DNA of 28,894 nt from a virus (Duplodnaviria; Heunggongvirae; Uroviricota; Caudoviricetes). The notes beneath the pieces are model-generated. The model searched no databases, had not been told where the DNA came from, and was given only the letters and a program-made list of their open reading frames with translations. The stretch covers positions 1 through 28,894 of IMG/VR virus record IMGVR_UViG_2534682060_000015. The stretch is one strand, 5' to 3'. A program made the translations under genes and the position numbers. Shown one piece after another: positions 3,843-24,569 of this stretch (position 1 is its first letter; the number at the start of each line of letters is the position of its first letter).

Positions 3843-3943
3843 AAATATTCCCGATAACCATTAGACCTGAGAGCATTAAAATATTCGTTATTTCTGTGCC
3901 ATGATTACCTCGTCAAATTGAGTAGACGTTATGAGGTAAATAT

Positions 3944-4141
3944 ATGTCAAATACGCTTATTCGTTTAACGGAAGTTCAGCGTAGAACTGGATATAGCAAG
4001 GCATGGATTTATCGCCTTATGGGGCAAGGTAAATTTCCTGCATCAGTTAAAATTGGCTCGCGAGCGATTGCTTTCGTTGAGAGTGAAATTGACGAGTGGA
4101 TTAATCAGCGTATTGCGGAATCACGCGGAACAGCTACCTGA
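3944..4141 (+). CDS. AlpA-family HTH transcriptional regulator / excisionase-like protein (65 aa)
   Basis: MSNTLIRLTEVQRRTGYSKAWIYRLMGQGKFPASVKIGSRAIAFVESEIDEWI matches the AlpA/Vis-type pattern (RL.EV...G.S...IYRL...G.FP...K.G.R...W...EI..W); gagg upstream of the ATG. Confidence 0.8.
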   Translation: MSNTLIRLTEVQRRTGYSKAWIYRLMGQGKFPASVKIGSRAIAFVESEIDEWINQRIAESRGTAT

Positions 4142-4219
4142 TTAAATGGCTACGGGGCCAGAAGTCCCAGCTATCCACCAGCAAATAAAAAGTAACTTAA
4201 TTCGATAGCAGGAGTTTTT

Positions 4220-5020
4220 ATGAAACTGCGAAAAACGCCCGTACAGGGGCAGGGCTTCGTTCGGCCTGAAAACCAGAGCCAACAAAATTTCTGCGAAATT
4301 ATCCCGGTTAGTTCCGGCGTTATTGGCGGGCGTGAAACCAATATTGTTAGCGCCAGAGCGTTGCATAAGGTGCTGGGTGTGAAGCGTGATTTCACAACTT
4401 GGATTAAAGGACGCATTGATGAGTACGGATTTAAAAAGGGCGTGGATTTTGAATTCGTAGAAAATTTGACCTCCCCCAATCCGGTGAGCGCAAAATCTCG
4501 CCAACGTGTAGAGCACGACTACCTGAGCACTATCAACATGGCGAAAGAACTGGCGATGGTCGAGCGCACCGAACAGGGGCGCGCCGTTCGTCAGTACTTT
4601 ATCAAATGCGAGGAGGAGCTACACAAGGTAGCGCCAGTGCGTTCCGCAGTGTTACGCCGGGAACTGAAAGCCCGTATCACAGTTGCCAGCTACTTTAAGC
4701 CAATGTGTGCCGCGCTGGAGGCGTACCGGGCTGAGCTGGGTAAAAACACTCTACAGCACCACTACACCACGGAAGCCAATATGCTGGCGCGTATCGTGCT
4801 GGGTGGCATGACTGCAAAACAGTGGGCGCAGGCGAACGGCATCACAGGCGAACCACGCGACCACATGAGCACGTTGCAGCTTGAGCATCTTTCTTACCTT
4901 AAGCAGAGCAATATCACGCTGATTGAGTTAGGCCAGGACTACCACCAGCGGAAAGCTGAATTAATTCGTCTTTCGCAGCGTTGGTTAGCCCGTCGCATGG
5001 AGGAAAACAGCCATGTGTAA
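4220..5020 (+). CDS. phage antirepressor-like protein (AntA/AntB-type N-terminal domain)
   Basis: Segment SARALHKVLGVKRDFTTWIKGRIDEYGFKKGVDFEF resembles the AntA/AntB antirepressor N-terminal domain; ORF 266 aa. Confidence 0.55.
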   Translation: MKLRKTPVQGQGFVRPENQSQQNFCEIIPVSSGVIGGRETNIVSARALHKVLGVKRDFTTWIKGRIDEYGFKKGVDFEFVENLTSPNPVSAKSRQRVEHDYLSTINMAKELAMVERTEQGRAVRQYFIKCEEELHKVAPVRSAVLRRELKARITVASYFKPMCAALEAYRAELGKNTLQHHYTTEANMLARIVLGGMTAKQWAQANGITGEPRDHMSTLQLEHLSYLKQSNITLIELGQDYHQRKAELIRLSQRWLARRMEENSHV

Positions 5021-5440
5021 CGCTCTGACCGTTACAAAAAGAAAAAGCGCCCCGTTGCCGGAGCGCCTTTGTGAACAAGTCGCTTACTGCGCCATATTGC
5101 TTACTGTCTACGAGGCAGATTATAGCGTTGTGGTCGTACAGAGTGAAGGCGCTGATCACTGTTATCACAGTAAGCCAGAAATGCAGAATATTTTGCTGCA
5201 AAATGCCGTTAGCCACGCTGTCCGGAAAGCAAAAAATACTGCTGGTGGTGCGACTGATGCAATTTCTTCTGGTCGTTCAGTGCTGAATAATCTGACATTT
5301 GATGCCGTTCTGGAGAAAACTAAGGCGACCGCAAAGTGGCACCGGTGGGTATTACGACAAATCAAACTTGAACATATTGCCAACAGCGGTGTATTTGCGG
5401 TCGGTGGGAAAAGCGTAACCGGAAGAAAATTCCGGTGGGG

Positions 5441-5656
5441 CTATTCCTGCTCTTTAATATCGCTATGTCGCGATGTTTTCCAGGTATGTGGCCCTAATTT
5501 TGTGCGCCTGTACTCTTTAAGGAACGTCTCAAGGACAAACGCACACGGCGCGAATTTGTCTGATTCATGCTCGTGCGTCATATTTTTGCGACGTCTCTTT
5601 CGGGTTTGTGATGGTATTTTTGTTAACTTTTTATTGTTCATAATGGCCTCCTGCAT
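5441..5656 (-). CDS. small basic hypothetical protein (up to 71 aa; true start uncertain)
   Basis: Minus-strand ORF directly downstream of the RHH-like gene, same orientation; lysine/arginine-rich (KRRRK). Confidence 0.3.
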   Translation of the reverse strand: MQEAIMNNKKLTKIPSQTRKRRRKNMTHEHESDKFAPCAFVLETFLKEYRRTKLGPHTWKTSRHSDIKEQE

Positions 5657-5704
5657 AGCAATGCGCCGTAGTTCCTCACATCACGGCACTGATAGTGGTT
5701 ATTC

Positions 5705-5878
5705 CTACTCTTTGGCCTTGCGCAGCTGGCGGTATTCAACTTCTCGCTTTAATGCTGCTGTAACAAACTGCCCTGTACTTTCACCTGGCATTTTTACCGC
5801 CTCAACATTGTTCATTACTTCATGCGGAACTCTTGCCGCAACGGTTTGTGATTTCGCGTTTACTGCTTTTGTCGCCAT
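5705..5878 (-). CDS. small ribbon-helix-helix-like DNA-binding protein (57 aa), candidate switch regulator
   Basis: Hand-translated minus-strand ORF below the 60-aa track cutoff: MATKAVNAKSQTVAARVPHEVMNNVEAVKMPGESTGQFVTAALKREVEYRQLRKAKE; RVPHEV...G.S...FV..AL pattern fits an Arc/CopG-type fold; divergent from the + strand operon starting at 6078. Confidence 0.45.
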   Translation of the reverse strand: MATKAVNAKSQTVAARVPHEVMNNVEAVKMPGESTGQFVTAALKREVEYRQLRKAKE

Positions 5879-5928
5879 GTTGTGTACCCCTCATGAAAAA
5901 CAAATGCAGTATGCAGAAAAAAAAATAA

Positions 5929-5980
5929 GTGTTCAACACTTGACGTGTTTAACACCTGAAATTAGATTGGTGTTCAACAC
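5929..5980. promoter_or_regulatory. three near-palindromic operator-like sites GTGTT(C/T)AACAC (5929..5939, 5945..5955, 5970..5980) in a divergent intergenic region
   Basis: Three copies of an 11-bp near-palindrome between the minus-strand RHH-like gene (start 5878) and the + strand gene starting 6078. Confidence 0.55.
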
Positions 5981-6077
5981 CTTGTTGAAGCAAGGTGCAG
6001 AAACGACGAAACCCGGCAGTGCGTCAACACTAACCGGGCTTCTAACCACCAACGATAACGAGAGTATCGAGGTAGCT

Positions 6078-6614
6078 ATGAGAAATCATACCACACACCC
6101 GCAAGGGCGGGACTCGCACAACCTGAATAAACCCGATGTAAAAAACCTGTTGCTCGCCACTGCCAGCCAAGGCTATGATTTATACGCACCAGCAAAATCT
6201 GGTGCCGGGATTGGCGTCCTGGTATTTAACGAAGCGCACAACACGCGCCCTGCGTGTTTTTTTGTGCCGGATAGTCACACCTTATCAATGGTGGGCTGTA
6301 TGGGGGCGGAGCAATCCGCGCCGGGTTCTTCGTTAACCGGTTACGCCAACCCCGTACAGTCCACCGCCAGCGAAATTGGCGTTTCCTGCGGTGGGTTTAT
6401 TAACCCTAACGAAGAGGCTGCCAATATGGCTACAGTCCCTACCCTTGTACATTCCCAAACTGCCTTTATCTGGCGCTTTATCATCTTTGGCGCGTCAGAA
6501 TCCCAAATCATCCACGTCACCGCCTGGACGGAACGCGAAGCGCGTAACCATTGCCCGTCCGGTTGTGTCGCTGTATTCGCCGCCCGTATTCGTCAGGAGG
6601 TGCGCCATGATTAA
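6078..6614 (+). CDS. hypothetical protein (178 aa from ATG 6078; possibly shorter, from ATG 6426)
   Basis: C-terminal part of the 533-aa track ORF; ATG 6078 has GAGG at 6069..6072; only the region from about 6078 on reads like protein (...IWRFIIFGASESQIIHVTAWTEREARNH...). The upstream part of the track ORF looks like non-coding read-through. Confidence 0.4.
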   Translation: MRNHTTHPQGRDSHNLNKPDVKNLLLATASQGYDLYAPAKSGAGIGVLVFNEAHNTRPACFFVPDSHTLSMVGCMGAEQSAPGSSLTGYANPVQSTASEIGVSCGGFINPNEEAANMATVPTLVHSQTAFIWRFIIFGASESQIIHVTAWTEREARNHCPSGCVAVFAARIRQEVRHD

Positions 6615-6900
6615 TCTGTCAATCTCTGACCTTAACCGCATTCAGTATGACGAGAAATTTACCGGGAGCGTAAAAGCATTGAGGAAGCAGGCTGGATGTG
6701 CACGACTTATTAAGCCGTTAAGGTGTCATCATGATGATGATCCGCACTTTACCGGACGTATGGTGAATCACTACAAAAAAGGCGTTGAGGTATCCTCTGA
6801 ACAGCTACGAGCTGGTTGCTGTTTCGGCACACCACCGGAATTTAGCGAACTGCTGACCCGTTGCGATTACCGGATCATTCAGGGGGAAAGTCATGGGTAA
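6607..6900 (+). CDS. hypothetical protein (97 aa)
   Basis: ATG 6607 with AGGAGG at 6595..6600; overlaps the previous stop (ATGATTAA); MINLSISDLNRIQYDEKFTGSVKALRKQAG... Confidence 0.55.
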   Translation: MINLSISDLNRIQYDEKFTGSVKALRKQAGCARLIKPLRCHHDDDPHFTGRMVNHYKKGVEVSSEQLRAGCCFGTPPEFSELLTRCDYRIIQGESHG

Positions 6901-7097: not shown

Positions 7098-7388
7098 ATG
7101 AAAAAGAAAAATTCTGGCTTTACTGCCAGCGGCCTCTCTCGGTCTGCAATTCGCTCTGGCGATATTTACCGCGACACCAGACGTGGGGGACGAGTGGTTA
7201 TTCGTCACGTTACGCCAGGAAATATCACCTACCGCCGTGAGGCTTACGAATATGACTGCGTAATGCCGCGCCGTCAGTTTGAGCGTGATTTTATTCTGGT
7301 GGAAAACAAAGAACAGGCAGTAGCGAGACGTGCAGCCTCGAGTATTAAAAAAATCCGGGCAATGTTGGTAGCTGGGGGTAAGAAGTGA
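7098..7388 (+). CDS. hypothetical protein (96 aa)
   Basis: ORF with stop overlapping the start of the large ATPase gene (7385). Confidence 0.5.
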   Translation: MKKKNSGFTASGLSRSAIRSGDIYRDTRRGGRVVIRHVTPGNITYRREAYEYDCVMPRRQFERDFILVENKEQAVARRAASSIKKIRAMLVAGGKK

Positions 7389-9517
7389 AAAACGCGCCGA
7401 ATTTAAAATATCAGCCGAAGGATAAATTCACTGAGGCAATCATTTTTGCCGGGATGGATGCTTACGCTCACGCTCAACACTGGATTGAAAGCGAAGGACG
7501 GAAATATGGCGATAGCGTGCCGCCTGTTTACCTGGGGCCAAAGCAACTGGCAGATCTGGCTAATATCCGCATTGTCGACGATGAACGTCGTTTTGCGCGC
7601 GTCTATCTCGCGGGGGAGATCGAACCAATCCAGATTAATGCTATCGCTGAAAGGCTGGCGCTGGCTGGCGTAAAGGATGCGAAATTATACAAAGGTATCC
7701 CTGACCAGGATCCGGAGAACTGGCGCGACTACCTGCAACGGATCCGTGAACAGGCAGAGCGCGGGGAAACCCTGACTGAAGGAATCGGAATAGCTGGTGG
7801 CTCACCCGGTAAAACAGGCCCCATGAAACCGCATATTACCGAAAAAGACGGGGCGCTCTGGTATATCGAGCCAATCCCCAACACCAGGGCAGAGGAGATG
7901 AATTATAAAGAAACCTGGCTGAGTGACCGGATGCGCACGGCAGGTATTGGTAATGACGGAAGGGAGGCGTATCTGATTATTGAAATGATCCCGGAAGGGA
8001 CACAAAAAATTATTTACGAAGCGATGCCGCGCAATGAAATCGGTATGCCCGCAGGATGGGCGCGATTACGTGGGCGGGGAGTTGCAATCACTACCAGCGC
8101 CCATTTATTGAACAAACTGGCGGAATACCTGCAACGTCATGGAGATCGCACGGTGTGGGAGGTCACATCAACAGCAGGTTGGCATTGTGGAGCCTATGTT
8201 ATGCCTGATGGCGAGGTGATTGGTGTGCCTGATCGTCCCGTAGCATTCTGCGGCGGATCTGCCGCCATCAAAGGCTATATTGTCAGGGGCACGGTGCATG
8301 AATGGCGAAATAATGTTGCTTCTCTGATGCGTGGCAATCACTCAATGATGCTTGGGGTGCTGGTCGGGCTGGCAGCCCCGCTAAATTCCCTTGTGGGGGG
8401 TAGTTGTTTTGGTATTCATCTTTTCGCGCAGTCGTCAGCGGGGAAAACCACGACTGTGGAGGCCGCCACCAGCCTTTATGGCGACCCTGAAATGCTTAAA
8501 CTCTCGTGGGATGCCACCCGGCACGGGTTGACAGTGGAAGCAGCTGCACGTAATGACGGTTTTATCCCTATTGATGAAATTGGTCAGGGAGGAAGGGTTA
8601 ATGACATTGCGCAATCCGCCTACAGCCTGTTTAACGGTGTGGGCAGGATTCAGGGGCGCAAGGACGGCGGCAATCGTGCGGTAATGCGCTGGAAAATAGC
8701 GGCACTAAGCACCGGAGAAGAAGATTTTGAAACCTTCCTGTTAAAAGGGGGAATTGCCCCAAAGGCAGGGCAACTGGTGCGACTGCTAAGCATTCCCTTT
8801 ACCGATACAACGGTGTTTAACGGTTATGACGATGGTGATCAACATGCCAGGGCCATAAAGCGACTTTCATCAAATTATTGTGGCGCTGCGGGACGTGAGT
8901 GGGTGCGCTGGTTATCCGCTCACAAGGAGTTGGCTATCAACACCACTTCAGATAAAGAAAATGCCTGGCTGGGAAATCTGCCTGAAAATGCCTCGTCACA
9001 GGTAAGGCGAGTGGCATCGCGATTCGCCATGCTGGATGCAGCCGGAGAGCTTGCTACCGCAATTACTGGCTGGACAGCTGAAGAATGCCGGGAAGCAACG
9101 CAACGGGCTTTTGATGACTGGCTACAGGATTTCGGGCTGGAAAACCGGGAAAAATATCAGGTCATCAGTCGCGCCCGTGACTTTATTCAGCGCCATGCCC
9201 TGAGTCGTTTTCAGCCTTATACCTACGGGAAAAGCAATGGGGATATGGATAACCACTATGCATCCCGTATAAGCAATCTTGCAGGCTATCTTGTCAGCGG
9301 TAAGCGTGAGGATGGAAAACCCGAATATCACATTATCCCGTCAGTGTTTGATAGCGAAATTTTATGCGGTATATCCAGGAACTTTGGGTGTCAGGCGCTG
9401 GAAGAAGCCGGAATGCTGGTTTGTGCAGAACCTGGTCGCTGGACATCGAAAACAGTGAAGATTAACGGAACACAGCAGCGATTTATCGTGCTGATTGATC
9501 AGGCAGAAGACGAATAG
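7385..9517 (+). CDS. large replication protein, P-loop NTPase (primase/helicase-like, 710 aa)
   Basis: Walker A AQSSAGKTT and Walker B IPIDEIG in the central region; size and position (after regulators, before an iteron field) match the replication proteins of P4-like/PICI-type satellites. Could belong to the DUF927-type family, but that is not verified. Confidence 0.6.
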   Translation: MKNAPNLKYQPKDKFTEAIIFAGMDAYAHAQHWIESEGRKYGDSVPPVYLGPKQLADLANIRIVDDERRFARVYLAGEIEPIQINAIAERLALAGVKDAKLYKGIPDQDPENWRDYLQRIREQAERGETLTEGIGIAGGSPGKTGPMKPHITEKDGALWYIEPIPNTRAEEMNYKETWLSDRMRTAGIGNDGREAYLIIEMIPEGTQKIIYEAMPRNEIGMPAGWARLRGRGVAITTSAHLLNKLAEYLQRHGDRTVWEVTSTAGWHCGAYVMPDGEVIGVPDRPVAFCGGSAAIKGYIVRGTVHEWRNNVASLMRGNHSMMLGVLVGLAAPLNSLVGGSCFGIHLFAQSSAGKTTTVEAATSLYGDPEMLKLSWDATRHGLTVEAAARNDGFIPIDEIGQGGRVNDIAQSAYSLFNGVGRIQGRKDGGNRAVMRWKIAALSTGEEDFETFLLKGGIAPKAGQLVRLLSIPFTDTTVFNGYDDGDQHARAIKRLSSNYCGAAGREWVRWLSAHKELAINTTSDKENAWLGNLPENASSQVRRVASRFAMLDAAGELATAITGWTAEECREATQRAFDDWLQDFGLENREKYQVISRARDFIQRHALSRFQPYTYGKSNGDMDNHYASRISNLAGYLVSGKREDGKPEYHIIPSVFDSEILCGISRNFGCQALEEAGMLVCAEPGRWTSKTVKINGTQQRFIVLIDQAEDE

Positions 9518-12621: not shown

Positions 12622-14121
12622 TTATACATTGTATGCGAGGTAATCATATAATGCTAAAAGTTTCCGATAATCAGTATGAGATTTGTCCTTAAACTCCCGG
12701 ACATGTTTTTCTAAATCTTCTAAGGGTATATGTTCATCATGAGCATTGAAGAAAATAATATTTTGTAATTTGCTATAACTATCAGAATGTTTAGCGTAAA
12801 TATCTTCAATGGTATGTTCTACTATTCTTTGATTCTTGGGTAACCTTGAATAGTTTAGATTTATTAATCTTTTTTGATTTTTCATTAATGATGTTAAGCA
12901 TTTAACACCTGGGCTGAATTTATGAAAAGCATAAGCTGGGAAATATGATCTTTTATTGATGGTGAACTTGTCAAGCAACTCGACAACATGTGATTCCTTA
13001 TTTGAAATTAGATCAAAATAGTTTTCCATCATCTCCTGAGGTGTTTGCATGTATATTTTTATAGAGTTAACAGAACCGACGGCTAGAACAAGCTCATCAT
13101 TTCTGAGTGTCTCCAAATCCCCAACAAGTTTTACTTTTATGTCTCCACCTTCCTTTATTTTACCAAAGATACTCTCTACTCTGCGTATATCCATTACCGA
13201 AACTGGTAAGTGGAGTTGAGCAAGTTCTTTATATATATCTGAGAAGTTATCTGTAACGATTTTATTAATGCTAATTAACCCTGCATCTTCTACTTCGAGA
13301 TCGTGAGAGACAATGTTTAAATTATCAATACCTTCTTCTCTTTCAATAAGAAGGAAGTTGTTTTTTATTTTTTCTGCAATTTTAGAACGAGGTGGTATGT
13401 ATGAGAATATTGTTTTTAATACTTTTTTTATATTCGGATCACCTATTCTATATCCCATAAATATAATCGGATTATGTATAAACAAGGATAGGAGTTGAGC
13501 ACGAATTAATTCATATTTTTTATCAAAATGAATATAGTCATCACTGGTTATTATTATGGATTCTGGTTTGCTAACGCATCCGTGAATTTTATAAACAGAA
13601 CCATAAGGATTGCTTAAAAGTATATCATTTCCAATAACAGGATTATAACCAATTGCACTTTCGATAAAATTATCATAGTTTGTCGTAATCACAGAGGCAA
13701 TGTTTTTTGAGGCCTTTACTAATTCAGATATTTCATCTTGAACTCCTAATTTTAAATCTGTGATATTAACCACCTGTGAAAGATAGATTTTAAATCTGCT
13801 GATATTTGAGGATATATCTTCCGACTCGTAGTATAAGTCATTGATATATTTGAACTTTCCATTCCTGTCTGCTTTTAGTGTTGCATCAAAAATTTGCTCT
13901 AATTGCGTTGCTACTTTTGGAAGGTCTACAATACCATCTTTATTGCTGTTTTCTCTGACAAGATCTTTATAGAGTTCATTAGAATTTGTCAGGTCAATAC
14001 TAATTTTCTCTAAGAGTGCCGGCCAGCTATAAGAAATTGATAAGTATCTCATGCTGAAACCTGCTCCAACAAATAATATTGGGTGGTTTCTGTAGCCTTT
14101 TAGAAAATCCGTTATATTCAT
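12622..14121 (-). CDS. SIR2-domain protein (499 aa): N-terminal SIR2-like NAD+ hydrolase domain plus unassigned ~300-aa C-terminal domain; candidate defence effector
   Basis: Rossmann motif PILFVGAGFS (aa 14-23), TTNYDNF (aa 146-152) and YKIHG (aa 178-181), the residue pattern of defence-associated SIR2 domains (ThsA/DSR-type Asn and His); GGAGG four nt upstream of the ATG (rc of 14122..14130); strongly AT-rich. Confidence 0.7.
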   Translation of the reverse strand: MNITDFLKGYRNHPILFVGAGFSMRYLSISYSWPALLEKISIDLTNSNELYKDLVRENSNKDGIVDLPKVATQLEQIFDATLKADRNGKFKYINDLYYESEDISSNISRFKIYLSQVVNITDLKLGVQDEISELVKASKNIASVITTNYDNFIESAIGYNPVIGNDILLSNPYGSVYKIHGCVSKPESIIITSDDYIHFDKKYELIRAQLLSLFIHNPIIFMGYRIGDPNIKKVLKTIFSYIPPRSKIAEKIKNNFLLIEREEGIDNLNIVSHDLEVEDAGLISINKIVTDNFSDIYKELAQLHLPVSVMDIRRVESIFGKIKEGGDIKVKLVGDLETLRNDELVLAVGSVNSIKIYMQTPQEMMENYFDLISNKESHVVELLDKFTINKRSYFPAYAFHKFSPGVKCLTSLMKNQKRLINLNYSRLPKNQRIVEHTIEDIYAKHSDSYSKLQNIIFFNAHDEHIPLEDLEKHVREFKDKSHTDYRKLLALYDYLAYNV

Positions 14122-14212
14122 TTGACCTCCGAGATATATTAGCGGTAATCATTAAAATTTGTAAGAACACAGCTCAAGTATGTATTTAGCTGTAGAGATA
14201 AGAATTTACTTG

Positions 14213-15340
14213 TTATTGACCATTTGGATAGTAAATTTTCATAAGCCTCTCTTTTTCTTTGTTGAATTCTTTATCAAAATCAAATTTTTTGTCTAAATTA
14301 GAATGTAAGTCATTTAACGCTTTAACAAGAACCCAAGCGCTGTGGTGGATGAATGGGTTTAATCCAATAATGTTTCCTGCAGAATTATCGTCAACTTTCT
14401 CAACTGCTAAAATCGCTTGGATTTTTTTACAGCTTTCCTGAATATTCCAATCTGAAACATGTAGTAATAATGCAGATAAAGCCATGAGTGGGTTGTTTGC
14501 TTTAATAGATGTAGGGGTGTAACTAATAATCATACGGAGTCGAGGGTGGTAGTCTCGAATCAGTCTCGCCATTCGAGTAGCTATCTCATATTTTTCGTTG
14601 AGAATTGATCTGTCAAATGTTGACGTCCCAGAGTCTTTAATTAATATAGTTCTTGCTTTTTTGACTACTGATTTAAGTCTTACATTCCAAAGCTCAGGAT
14701 TCTCATGACGGTCTAGATAGAATTGAGGATGCTTGAAATAAAGAGATTGATATACTTCCTCGTTGATATCGAACCAACTTTTGTTTATGGCGCTGAGATC
14801 GACAACATAATTATCATTGTTTCTCTTATATCTAATCAATGAGGCCTTTGCAAGGTAGATTATGTGAGGGCTTAAATTAAATGTAAAAGTGCCTTTTTCT
14901 CTTAAATCTAAGAACCATTGGCGCATGTTACGTATATCTTCTTGCGTAAAAATCTTCTCCTGAATTCCCGCACAGACCATAAGACCTATTAAGCGTGTCG
15001 CTTCAGAACCCGAGCGCATAAAATCAATTTGGCCTTCATTTGAAACAACGTTCAACTTATCATCGCCAGTATAAAAATCACAAAATGGGAGGTGAGAGTC
15101 TTTACCTAGATTGTCTCGAAATGCAAAGTGTGCTTGCTTTACAACTTTGCCGTTACTGAGAGATCTTCCTTCCGAAACGTAATAACCACCAGAAACATTG
15201 CATGCCGGGCATTCAACATCCTCTTTAACAAAATCTCTAAAACTTAGAGAAGGATCTGAGTTGCTACGTTCGAAAAGGTTTTCCAACTGCTTAGCATCCA
15301 GCTCACGCTTAAATTTTCTAGAATAGGCCGTTATCGTCAT
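14213..15340 (-). CDS. hypothetical protein (375 aa from ATG 15340; track ORF extends to TTG 15406), upstream partner of the SIR2 gene
   Basis: ATG at 15340 has AAGGAG 6 nt upstream (rc of 15347..15352); no Walker A, TIR or other motif recognised by eye; contains CPAC and PFCDFY cysteine motifs; ~90-bp gap to the SIR2 gene, same strand. Confidence 0.6.
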   Translation of the reverse strand: MTITAYSRKFKRELDAKQLENLFERSNSDPSLSFRDFVKEDVECPACNVSGGYYVSEGRSLSNGKVVKQAHFAFRDNLGKDSHLPFCDFYTGDDKLNVVSNEGQIDFMRSGSEATRLIGLMVCAGIQEKIFTQEDIRNMRQWFLDLREKGTFTFNLSPHIIYLAKASLIRYKRNNDNYVVDLSAINKSWFDINEEVYQSLYFKHPQFYLDRHENPELWNVRLKSVVKKARTILIKDSGTSTFDRSILNEKYEIATRMARLIRDYHPRLRMIISYTPTSIKANNPLMALSALLLHVSDWNIQESCKKIQAILAVEKVDDNSAGNIIGLNPFIHHSAWVLVKALNDLHSNLDKKFDFDKEFNKEKERLMKIYYPNGQ

Positions 15341-15365
15341 TTCGGTCTCCTTTCGAAGGGAGCTT

Positions 15366-15393
15366 AACTTTATCATAGGATGATCATAAAGGG
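15366..15393 (-). promoter_or_regulatory. imperfect palindrome CTTTATCATAGGATGATCATAAAG just upstream of the cassette RBS
   Basis: Arms CTTTATCA / TCATAAAG with one mismatch; holds two TATGAT hexamers on the minus strand; 14 nt upstream of the AAGGAG RBS. Confidence 0.35.
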
Positions 15394-15635
15394 AGCTGTA
15401 CGGCAAACATCACTAAGGTTGGGCCTGAAACACAAATTCCCTAAGTGCAATTTTGACGTCTAACTTACTTGATGTGCTTCAAGGCGGTTCTTACATTGTG
15501 GTATCAACAACAATAGAATGTTTTTTAAACAATTTAGATAGCAACAAGCAAGTCTGGGGGTACTTTTGGGGGTATCTAATGATTGCGTAATAGTTTTTTT
15601 ATATACATATCAATGTGTTGATTTCTACAATTTGT

Positions 15636-23540: not shown

Positions 23541-24569
23541 ATGATTATCGGAAATGAAGTGGTTGATCTTGCTCCACTGTTCGAATTAAACGACTCACGC
23601 AATTACCTACTGTCTACTCTGGATTTTACTGATCCTGTGCCTGTAGAAAGTCACAAAGTGGCTGTTTCCCAGCTTATCGAGAGCAATGAATCTCTGTTCA
23701 ACCATCCTACAAGCCGTTTTAGCTCTGAGCATAACGTTACTAAGCGTGAGAACGGGGAAGAATGGCTGATTGAAATCCCTTACTTCCTGCGTGAAGACCT
23801 GATCAAACCGCAGGACGTGCAAGGCAAACGCAAAGCCGGAAGCTCTATTGAAGAAACACTGCCGGATCTGTATGCGGAATATATCGCTAAACACAATGTT
23901 GCATTCCAGCGCACTAAAGAAAGCATCCTCGCGGCTTCTCTGTTCTCTGGCAAGACACATACCCCGAAAACTGACGATGTTCTGATCGATTACAGCATTC
24001 TGTTCGGTGTGTCTCCAATGACTGCAACCGTTGACGCATCCAGCACCAACACAATGACCGTATTCAAGCAATTTGATCAGATGCATACGGATATGATTGC
24101 TAAGGCACAAAGCCAGGCTGCAACCATTGAGCGTGTTGTTGTGTTCTGTAAACCTGCGGCATTCAACGCTATTCGTTACAGCGTTGGCATGGTTAATGCG
24201 TTCCAGTATGCAAGCCCTGTAGACGATGCAAACGTGGTGTTTAATGTGCGTTCTCTGCTGCCTGGTGTAACTACTTTCACCATTCCAGGAACTAACATTG
24301 ATCTGATCAAAGTGACTGATCCGCTGCTGCTGGCACATATGACCGCAGACGCTGTAGCTGTTCCTAAATTCGCTAAAGGTGCAGGTGTTTACCAATCTAT
24401 TTATGGCGCTCCTTCCAGTTCCTTCGATCTGCTGTCCCAAGGTGCAAAAGAGTATTACAGCTATGCTTTCGAATCGAATCGCGGCGACGCAGTGCACGTA
24501 GTGACCGAGAATAGCTCGCTTGTGGTTAACCACGGTGTTGGTTTCTCTGTTCAGATTACAGTGGCGTAA
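23541..24569 (+). CDS. putative phage major capsid protein (342 aa)
   Basis: Size and position after a small head-like protein; C-terminal segment ...VVNHGVGFSVQITVA resembles the C-terminus of lambda-type major capsid protein E as I recall it. The antisense 337-aa ORF on the opposite strand is treated as spurious. Confidence 0.45.
   Translation: MIIGNEVVDLAPLFELNDSRNYLLSTLDFTDPVPVESHKVAVSQLIESNESLFNHPTSRFSSEHNVTKRENGEEWLIEIPYFLREDLIKPQDVQGKRKAGSSIEETLPDLYAEYIAKHNVAFQRTKESILAASLFSGKTHTPKTDDVLIDYSILFGVSPMTATVDASSTNTMTVFKQFDQMHTDMIAKAQSQAATIERVVVFCKPAAFNAIRYSVGMVNAFQYASPVDDANVVFNVRSLLPGVTTFTIPGTNIDLIKVTDPLLLAHMTADAVAVPKFAKGAGVYQSIYGAPSSSFDLLSQGAKEYYSYAFESNRGDAVHVVTENSSLVVNHGVGFSVQITVA

Follow-up and report, generated by a model that had tools for sequence, protein, structure and literature searches.

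A candidate ribbon-helix-helix repressor and palindromic operator sites nested antisense within an eta-like reading frame in the early-control region of a P4-related phage satellite

The stretch of DNA analysed here, 28,894 nucleotides of the IMG/VR virus record IMGVR_UViG_2534682060_000015 (hereafter the window, meaning the whole 28.9-kb stretch), carries a satellite-type island that adjoins tRNA-Thr(CGU), and the segment of interest is the early-control region of a phage-inducible chromosomal island (PICI)-type, P4-related phage satellite integrated at tRNA-Thr. The genes of the island run from an integrase, an int-alpA RNA, alpA and an AntA-type gene (antA) through a switch region, small open reading frames (ORFs) and a DUF4222 gene to a DUF927 primase/helicase, ProQ/FinO, PerC and a SIR2-like gene, and from the ATG at 6078 to the primase/helicase the plus-strand genes follow one another without gaps. 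Within the switch region (Table 1), a minus-strand gene for a 57-residue protein of the YlcI/YnfO family faces the rightward operon across a short intergenic segment with three palindromes and two divergent promoter-like sequences. All of these elements, together with a second leftward gene (orf66), the IsrK and C4 RNAs and a terminal Kil/Icd-like domain, lie inside a single long plus-strand ORF that resembles eta of phage P4. Positions 5441-6640 of the window are 100% identical to a segment of Escherichia coli E21845/O/A.

Table 1. Features of the early-control region and the primase gene downstream (window coordinates; aa, amino acids; RHH, ribbon-helix-helix)
Feature	Position	Strand	Remarks
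eta-like ORF, 533 aa	5013..6614	+	ATG 5013 follows a GGAGG Shine-Dalgarno sequence and overlaps the antA stop codon (5018-5020)
orf66, 66 aa	5441..5641	minus	AGGAGG Shine-Dalgarno sequence; second leftward gene, optional partner of the RHH gene
Candidate repressor gene, 57 aa, YlcI/YnfO family, RHH-type	5705..5878	minus	nested antisense in the eta-like ORF
Putative leftward promoter PL	5908..5936	minus	-35 TTGAAC (5936 to 5931), 17-nt spacer, -10 CATACT (5913 to 5908); read from the sequence
Putative operator O1	5929..5939		GTGTTCAACAC; abuts the PR -35 and contains the PL -35
Putative rightward promoter PR	5940..5968	+	-35 TTGACG (5940-45), 17-nt spacer, -10 TAGATT (5963-68); scanner 9/12
Putative operator O2	5945..5955		GTGTTTAACAC; first base is the last base of the PR -35; fills the PR spacer
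Putative operator O3	5970..5980		GTGTTCAACAC; covers the PR stretch from -10 to +1 (about -6 to +5)
Candidate SymR-like cis-antisense RNA	6000..6090	minus	from about 6077 to about 6000; extended -10 TGGTATGAT (hexamer 6090 to 6085)
Candidate second rightward promoter (PLE/PisrK equivalent)	6150..6179	+	TTGCTC, 18-nt spacer, TATGAT; found by eye, 6 nt before the IsrK 5' end
IsrK RNA (P4 seqA counterpart)	6186..6262	+	Rfam RF01394, 80 bits; intrinsic terminator
C4 antisense RNA (P4 CI immunity RNA counterpart)	6284..6371	+	Rfam RF01695, 76.4 bits
Kil/Icd-like terminal gene, 61 aa	6427..6614	+	NF033153; nested at the end of the eta-like ORF; short form called by the annotation pipeline in strain W12-1
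DUF927 primase/helicase	7385-9517	+	

The original prediction for this DNA, made from the sequence alone, had proposed a 57-residue minus-strand ORF divergent from the rightward operon and three near-palindromes between the two. Both stand: the ORF is a gene annotated by the Prokaryotic Genome Annotation Pipeline (PGAP) and matches the NCBIfam family NF041551, and the 199-bp gap between its start (5878) and the first plus-strand ATG (6078) holds three exact GTGTTYAACAC sites. The window contains zero other such sites at up to one mismatch, and the observed count was reached in 0 of 100 shuffles. PR is the sole sigma-70-like site that the scanner reported in 5300-6700, with an expected start near 5975, so that O1 lies next to its -35, O2 within its spacer and O3 over its start region. 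PL matches at 8 of 12 positions, under the scanner threshold, and would start near 5901; a GAGGGG Shine-Dalgarno sequence precedes the ATG of the RHH-type gene.

This arrangement was compared across 24 genome loci, 78 IMG/VR loci (many of them on satellite-sized contigs of 8-15 kb), three further E. coli alleles and the island EcCICFT073; single loci are cited below by L number. The 24 genome loci share one architecture, with palindromes at fixed offsets from the start codon of the RHH-type gene: directly after the PL -10 (+22), starting in the PR -35 (+67), and at or overlapping the PR -10 (+89 to +93). The position of O2 (+67) is kept in nearly all loci and that of O3 (+89 to +93) is likewise conserved, overlapping the last -10 bases in many of them, while a site where O1 lies (+51) is confined to the window, L002, L004 and close relatives. 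The TTGAnn / 17-18 nt / TAnnnT arrangement of PR is retained in 23 of the 24 loci (L023 has CACGAT). In other loci the place of the PL -10 is taken by TATACT, followed directly by an extra operator (OL, at +22), which is degenerate in the window. A few loci have lost sites: O2 is degenerate in L009, and L012 and L016 lack the O2-O3 segment or the whole promoter, so these switches may have decayed.

Each locus uses a single core common to all of its palindrome copies, and this core varies between loci in step with residues 11-15 of the RHH-type protein, which belong to its predicted N-terminal strand, whereas the remaining protein is conserved and the outer GTG...CAC bases of the palindromes are nearly constant. 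Thus QTVAA pairs with GTGTTCAACAC, KKLEA with GTGGCTGACAC, QSLKS and QALKA with GTGGGCCACAC, QK[VL]Q[AT] with GTGGAGTCCAC, QKMSA with CTGGGTGCCAG, QMTTV with GTGTATTTCAC and QQLNA with GTGCGATTCAC, while KRFDV and KRIDA (R12/D14) pair with GTGTCCGACAC in Pectobacterium and E. coli alike. K12/Q14 is found with an inner GGAnTCC in two lineages that have different outer bases. At least 11 classes of core and strand residues can be told apart, and the pairings were seen again in independent material, namely the 78 IMG/VR contigs and the three further E. coli alleles. In addition, sites at up to one mismatch are confined, in each locus, to the intergenic region upstream of the RHH-type gene. This co-variation supports a predicted cognate, autoregulated repressor-operator pair.

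The 57-residue protein belongs to NF041551, an N-terminal model of 42 residues with a curated cutoff of 30 bits, which it matches over residues 9-50 with 59.7 bits (E 2e-16); in the identical E. coli sequence PGAP names it 'YlcI/YnfO family protein' (WP_000201460.1). An AlphaFold model of the monomer, computed from an alignment of 33 sequences, has a mean predicted local distance difference test score (pLDDT) of 81.7, exceeding 90 from residue 21, and shows an extended N-terminus followed by two helices. The order of elements is that of an RHH domain (N-terminal strand, helix A, G-x-S/T turn and helix B in about 45 residues), and both the invariant G32-E33-S34 turn and the alternately hydrophobic residues 13, 15 and 17 fit this fold. 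The RHH antitoxins TacA, ParD and CopA_SO are among the structural neighbours of the protein; a Foldseek search against the PDB gave no significant match. No significant sequence or profile match to the RHH superfamily was obtained: the protein and 33 family members gave nothing above threshold in Pfam, with sub-threshold hints (CB_ParB_C, PSK_trans_fac, DUF7557) in a few members, sequence and profile searches of the PDB returned chance matches only (DNA polymerase beta, designed cages), and hhalign comparisons with Arc and CopG scored poorly, at 3-5% probability. The RHH fold is therefore best described as supported, though not proven.

The long plus-strand frame that encloses this module had been considered a probable artefact in the original prediction, a view that does not survive the comparison with P4 Eta, the start/stop coupling or the avoidance of stops described here. 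The frame from 4989 to 6614 runs for 541 codons without a stop, whereas the other five frames have 18-33 stops, and a composition-based estimate puts the probability of zero stops at about 1e-11. Phage_ASH (Pfam) is matched at residues 391-481 and the Icd-like model (NCBIfam NF033153) at residues 485-528, in the same order as in the P4 ORF at 8812..8168 (Phage_ASH 37-161, Icd-like 161-208), so that the P4 eta/kil architecture of a long ORF with an internal early promoter, Phage_ASH and a terminal Kil/Icd-like domain is present. P4 Kil itself matches NF033153 at 76 bits, and BLASTP of the Icd-like end of the window ORF against P4 Kil gave no alignment; the relation is therefore at family level only, through the common NF033153 match. 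Translational coupling to an upstream alpA-type gene is likewise indicated by the sequence, where the ATG at 5013 overlaps the antA stop, and ATGA, GTGA or short overlaps with the upstream gene occur in L005, L006, L018, L019, L022, L025 and L030.

The enclosing frame is also maintained among relatives. A stop-free plus-strand frame spans the whole antisense of the RHH-type gene in 16 of 21 diverged loci and 77 of 78 IMG/VR loci, and likewise in the three extra E. coli alleles and EcCICFT073; it usually begins where the upstream alpA- or Bro-type gene stops, crosses the operators and enters the Icd-like ORF. A codon test bears on this directly: in this phase, the only way for a plus-strand stop to arise is a T (or T/C) in the third position of the codon that precedes a His, Gln or Tyr codon in the RHH-type gene. 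Among 26 distinct genes with 143 such sites, and 49 further genes with 295, the stop-creating choice was never made (together 0/438), against a T usage of 21-22% at other third positions. On this codon evidence, selection is shown to keep the eta-like frame stop-free through the RHH-type gene, and the candidate repressor gene is thus nested antisense in an ORF that is kept translatable.

The first 140 codons of the eta-like ORF (5013-5440) have no gene on the opposite strand and read like a real protein segment, and they match no Pfam, NCBIfam or PHROG family. PGAP treats 6078-6614 differently in genomes that are nearly identical: in one it calls just a 178-aa 'Icd-like' coding sequence from 6078, while another has an 'ash family protein' pseudogene that starts in the start codon of the RHH-type gene, plus a 63-aa Icd-like coding sequence, and neither annotation calls the full eta-like ORF.

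Downstream of PR, the leader of the first plus-strand ORF appears to encode an RNA on the opposite strand. Rfam RF01809 (SymR) matches the minus strand from 6077 to 6005 over the whole model with 33.9 bits, below the gathering score of 61, and we therefore refer to the RNA as SymR-like and not as a SymR member. The arrangement is nevertheless that of SymR, with a putative promoter in the first codons of the target, two predicted hairpins and a candidate RNA complementary to the ribosome-binding site before the ATG at 6078; the extended -10 is placed 7 nt before 6077. An alignment of 22 loci supports two hairpins, 15 of whose 19 pairs have changed in a compensatory manner, and contains 40 G-U cells that are valid on the minus strand only, against 0 A-C cells. 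Folding energies agree, at -35.1 kcal/mol (z -4.4) for the minus strand and -20.5 kcal/mol (z -1.9) for the plus strand. Every locus examined has a TAnnnT hexamer in the first codons of the plus-strand ORF, and the distance from this -10 to the start codon equals that of K-12 symR in 23 of 25 loci, being 6 nt shorter in the window and L002. Taken together, the comparative data show a predicted RNA structure that is conserved and specific to the minus strand, and they make the SymR-like RNA a candidate for a cis-antisense regulator.

A second RNA layer is found further along the leader, where IsrK and C4, both above the Rfam gathering score, lie in the order of P4 on the way from the early promoter to the kil-like gene; the scanner also reported a terminator-like site at 6240-6258, in IsrK. 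The promoter-like sequence before IsrK was missed by the scanner because its -35 matches at just 3 of 6 positions. In Salmonella, IsrK has its own promoter (PMC4825925), and here the two RNAs are probably also made from a promoter of their own, to judge from the sequence. The idea that repression of PR stops C4 RNA production was accordingly dropped, since the promoter-like site, identified by eye, is separate. The IsrK/C4 pair was found in 0 of 20 related loci that bear the RHH-type gene, and in the Edwardsiella locus whose RHH-type protein is 98% identical the leader passes straight into the Icd-like ORF, so that in the window these RNAs represent an added module. A match to the Pfam Ash protein family (PF10554) at 6183-6456 coincides with the IsrK and C4 DNA, as it does in P4, and much of what is conserved in this family may be RNA genes that happen to lie in a translated frame.

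The other leftward gene, orf66, is also antisense within the eta-like ORF and gives a full-length match to phrog_21027 (E 2.4e-30). Its product has a basic KRRRK stretch followed by FAPCAFxLExFLKEYR. Homologues in E. coli are 70-91% identical, with a PGAP call in strain W12-1, and one follows the RHH-type gene in EcCICFT073 (L122 4743-4916); loci of other genera have none. Searches of Pfam, NCBIfam and PHROG found no toxin family match for orf66.

The protein family is small: a search of 1.84 billion proteins gave only 82 cluster representatives at E <= 1e-3. It includes homologues from Salmonella, Klebsiella, Serratia, Pectobacterium, Proteus, Xenorhabdus, Edwardsiella and others. Within E. 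coli, the segment with the RHH-type gene and operators is present in 574 of 5,426 complete genomes (~10%), always on the chromosome. A tblastn search of 50,697 phage records, P4 included, with the RHH-type protein gave no match; P4 and lambdoid phages are therefore without this subfamily. The module is also present in EcCICFT073, the model Gram-negative PICI, which is recognised by int, alpA, primase, SSB and PerC together with c1499 and c1500, the genes for capsid and head decoration; there it comprises a 59-aa allele, the orf66 homologue, GTGGGCCACAC sites at +67 and +90 and an eta-like frame of 433 codons. In Edwardsiella hoshinae (L002 2800-3400), the RHH-type protein shares 98% identity with that of the window and the three operators match exactly, whereas the flanks differ and IsrK/C4 are absent, a likeness that points to a recent exchange of the RHH module alone between genera.

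From these observations we propose that the RHH-type protein and its operators, the eta-like read-through ORF and the RNA layers together form the early-control system of the satellite, and we put the probability of this reading, which is built on sequence comparison, at about 0.65. The protein would be made from the weak PL, and its dimers would bind the 11-bp palindromes. In the manner of RHH proteins, such a dimer would insert an antiparallel two-stranded sheet into the major groove of the operator, for which the co-variation of strand residues 11-15 with the palindrome core is indirect support. Occupancy of O2 and O3, in the spacer and over the -10/+1 region of PR, together with O1 at the -35, would block RNA polymerase and so keep the Icd/Kil-like gene and the primase operon off, and the protein would limit its own synthesis because O1 contains the PL -35; in most relatives, OL after the PL -10 would serve this autoregulation. 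By analogy with P4, firing of the helper-activated alpA/antA operon would send transcription and coupled translation through the eta-like ORF. Such read-through would escape the controls on PR transcripts and reach the replication genes, and it would also converge on PL and silence the repressor gene, so that the change would be self-reinforcing. The selection against stops in the eta-like frame is indirect evidence that its translation would keep Rho from terminating transcripts of the upstream promoter. The SymR-like RNA would cover the ribosome-binding site at 6078, the first ATG after PR, and block initiation of translation there; this block may in turn favour premature termination, in the way that CI acts on kil in P4. 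Thus the SymR-like RNA and, in this island only, the IsrK/C4 RNAs would back up the protein switch.

The earlier suggestion that a repressor/operator switch controls induction of the island is thus upheld in one respect, by the sites on the promoters and their co-variation with the protein, and incomplete in another, since the switch would be one layer among several, alongside the SymR-like RNA, IsrK/C4 and alpA/antA read-through. What is unusual is a candidate repressor nested antisense in a read-through ORF, while the RHH repressor/operator switch and the P4 eta/kil architecture are each of known kinds.

Several points weigh against this proposal. PL is weak, with 8 of 12 matches, and lacks the OL site of its relatives. 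The open frame is shortened in 5 of 21 diverged loci, and read-through translation is therefore not universal. Overexpression of AlpA alone induces EcCICFT073 (PMC6092414), so the RHH-type protein cannot be an absolute block. Furthermore, part of the co-variation could be linkage, because the protein gene and its sites are neighbours and are inherited together. That all sites within a locus change in concert, and that the same pairings recur in different backgrounds, argues against linkage, without proving binding, and is what would be expected of a cognate DNA-binding protein with a diversified ('hetero-immune') specificity.

The principal alternative is that the RHH-type protein and its sites act as a transient damper of the Cro or Arc kind, which lowers PR activity after induction or sets its level and does not maintain the silence of PR. 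A small, autoregulated protein made from a weak promoter would suit such a role, as would the sufficiency of AlpA for induction of EcCICFT073, and the immI region of P22 has both kinds of RHH regulator. Against it, the RHH-type gene is transcribed away from the induced operon and does not belong to it, and eta-like read-through would converge on the gene and oppose its expression during induction. Moreover, no other repressor of PR can be recognised in most relatives, which also lack IsrK/C4. On balance, we consider the damper unlikely.

Three further explanations seem to us much less probable. That the protein acts as antitoxin or autoregulator in a toxin-antitoxin-like pair with orf66, with palindromes that serve its own promoter only, would agree with the RHH antitoxins among its structural neighbours and with the position of orf66 directly after it, with its own Shine-Dalgarno sequence and conserved in EcCICFT073; it is highly improbable, as orf66 is absent from almost all non-E. 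coli loci, in which the RHH-type gene and sites persist, two of three sites lie on PR and not on PL despite the regulator-first order, and orf66 has no toxin family match. As a general explanation, such a cassette was rejected because orf66 is restricted to E. coli islands. Nor do we give much credence to binding of the palindromes by another factor (AlpA, the Bro/AntA protein, or a host or helper-phage protein), with a different target for the RHH-type protein: the nearly constant outer GTG...CAC could be read by a common factor, but the core tracks the strand residues of the RHH-type protein and not the upstream gene, which is AlpA or Bro/AntA-type depending on the locus, and identical combinations of core and strand residues recur across genera. 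Finally, the switch might stand alone, with the long plus-strand ORF a chance artefact, as its N-terminal 355 residues, without family match and in part Cys/Ser/Phe-rich and antisense-looking, might suggest. The no-stop probability of about 1e-11, the retention of the frame in 16 of 21 diverged and 77 of 78 IMG/VR loci, the lack of a single stop-creating synonymous choice among 438 and the domain order of P4 Eta make this a very poor prospect.

It is possible to go further, although the extension is tentative and, in our view, possible rather than probable: the YlcI-like RHH-type protein may be the missing maintenance repressor of Gram-negative PICI-type satellites, including EcCICFT073, and two residues of its strand may read the hetero-immune specificities, a dozen or more in number. 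With its gene antisense in a translated read-through ORF, the protein would form a convergent-transcription toggle that helper- or AlpA-driven transcription bypasses and silences, with the SymR-like RNA as a translational back-up and as the source of K-12 symE/symR. Gram-negative PICIs have been described as transcribed rightward only, with AlpA as activator and a global repressor that is unclear (Fillol-Salom 2018, PMC6092414), and our literature search found no publication on YlcI/YnfO function and none on an RHH regulator in such satellites. The module is a concrete and easily tested repressor candidate that bears on this open question, and a repressor role, if true, would assign a function to the uncharacterised YlcI/YnfO-like family. 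Its classes would also amount to naturally occurring repressor/operator pairs that are orthogonal to one another and follow what looks like a simple recognition code. In addition, the RHH-type gene clearly exemplifies the antisense nesting of a bacterial gene in another ORF, the codons of which give evidence that both strands are under selection, and the origin of symE/symR would be linked to the early leaders of phage satellites.

Elsewhere in the window, a few observations concern the island as a whole. The alpA region (about 3900-4200 against L001 4539-4727) did not align with the otherwise identical E21845/O/A island, and the AlpA ORF differs between the two in coordinates and length, which marks the island as a mosaic in the part before antA. 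The SIR2-like gene and a neighbouring 397-aa ORF (12622-15406, minus strand) resemble defence-type cargo, and a major-capsid-protein-E gene at 23541-24569 may belong to a late zone of the island or to a second element.

Among known systems, the immunity and early region of P4 (NC_001609; PLL-vis-eta/kil) shares the enclosing ORF. There, too, a long ORF is coupled to an alpA-type gene and ends in a Kil/Icd-like domain, an internal rightward promoter and the IsrK/seqA and C4/CI RNAs lie inside it in identical order, and the primase operon follows downstream. In P4, the PLE promoter lies inside eta, and eta translation prevents termination of transcripts from the upstream promoter (Forti et al. 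1999, summarised in PMC10111431). P4 differs in having no protein repressor at this place, whereas the window ORF is about 320 codons longer and accommodates the antisense RHH-type gene and orf66, the operators and a second promoter; most relatives with the RHH module, unlike P4, are without IsrK/C4. The staphylococcal-type islands (SaPIs, the Staphylococcus aureus pathogenicity islands, and other Gram-positive PICIs) have a divergent repressor, Stl or Rpr, between the int side and the replication operon (PMC6092414), where the window has its candidate repressor. Stl proteins, however, are large helix-turn-helix repressors that are relieved by helper-phage proteins, while the module described here is known by its position and operator placement.

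In E. coli K-12, YlcI (DLP12) and YnfO (Qin), of DUF3950, fall in the same NCBIfam family, NF041551, and resemble the 57-residue protein in a small N-terminal strand-helix-helix region, with just 22% identity. The K-12 ylcI gene is divergent from nohD near cos of a lambdoid prophage and has no comparable repeated palindromes, and for these reasons its context was rejected as an uninformative guide to the module. The K-12 symE/symR locus, a type I toxin-antitoxin system (L035 5780-6070), aligns with the leader of the satellite Icd-like gene (window 6000-6090) in its leader, hairpins, antisense promoter position (-10, 7 nt, AGYCAT) and first codons. It differs in that the target in the satellite is Icd/Kil-like and not SymE; the K-12 locus has neither an RHH gene nor palindromes that match, and LexA controls the symE promoter. 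The alignment suggests that the symE 5' region and SymR may derive from a satellite early leader.

The immI region of P22, with its Mnt and Arc RHH repressors, divergent Pant and Pmnt promoters and sar antisense RNA, offers a functional parallel to the proposed switch. In both, a small RHH repressor, here a candidate one, is divergent from the repressed promoter, operators overlap both promoters, and the operon's first gene has its ribosome-binding site covered by a small cis-antisense RNA, likewise a candidate in the satellite. The two have no detectable sequence relationship (hhalign to Arc, probability 5%). The P22 operon encodes an antirepressor, whereas here the predicted target is the replication operon of a satellite, and the cassette is embedded in an ORF, predicted to be translated, on the opposite strand.

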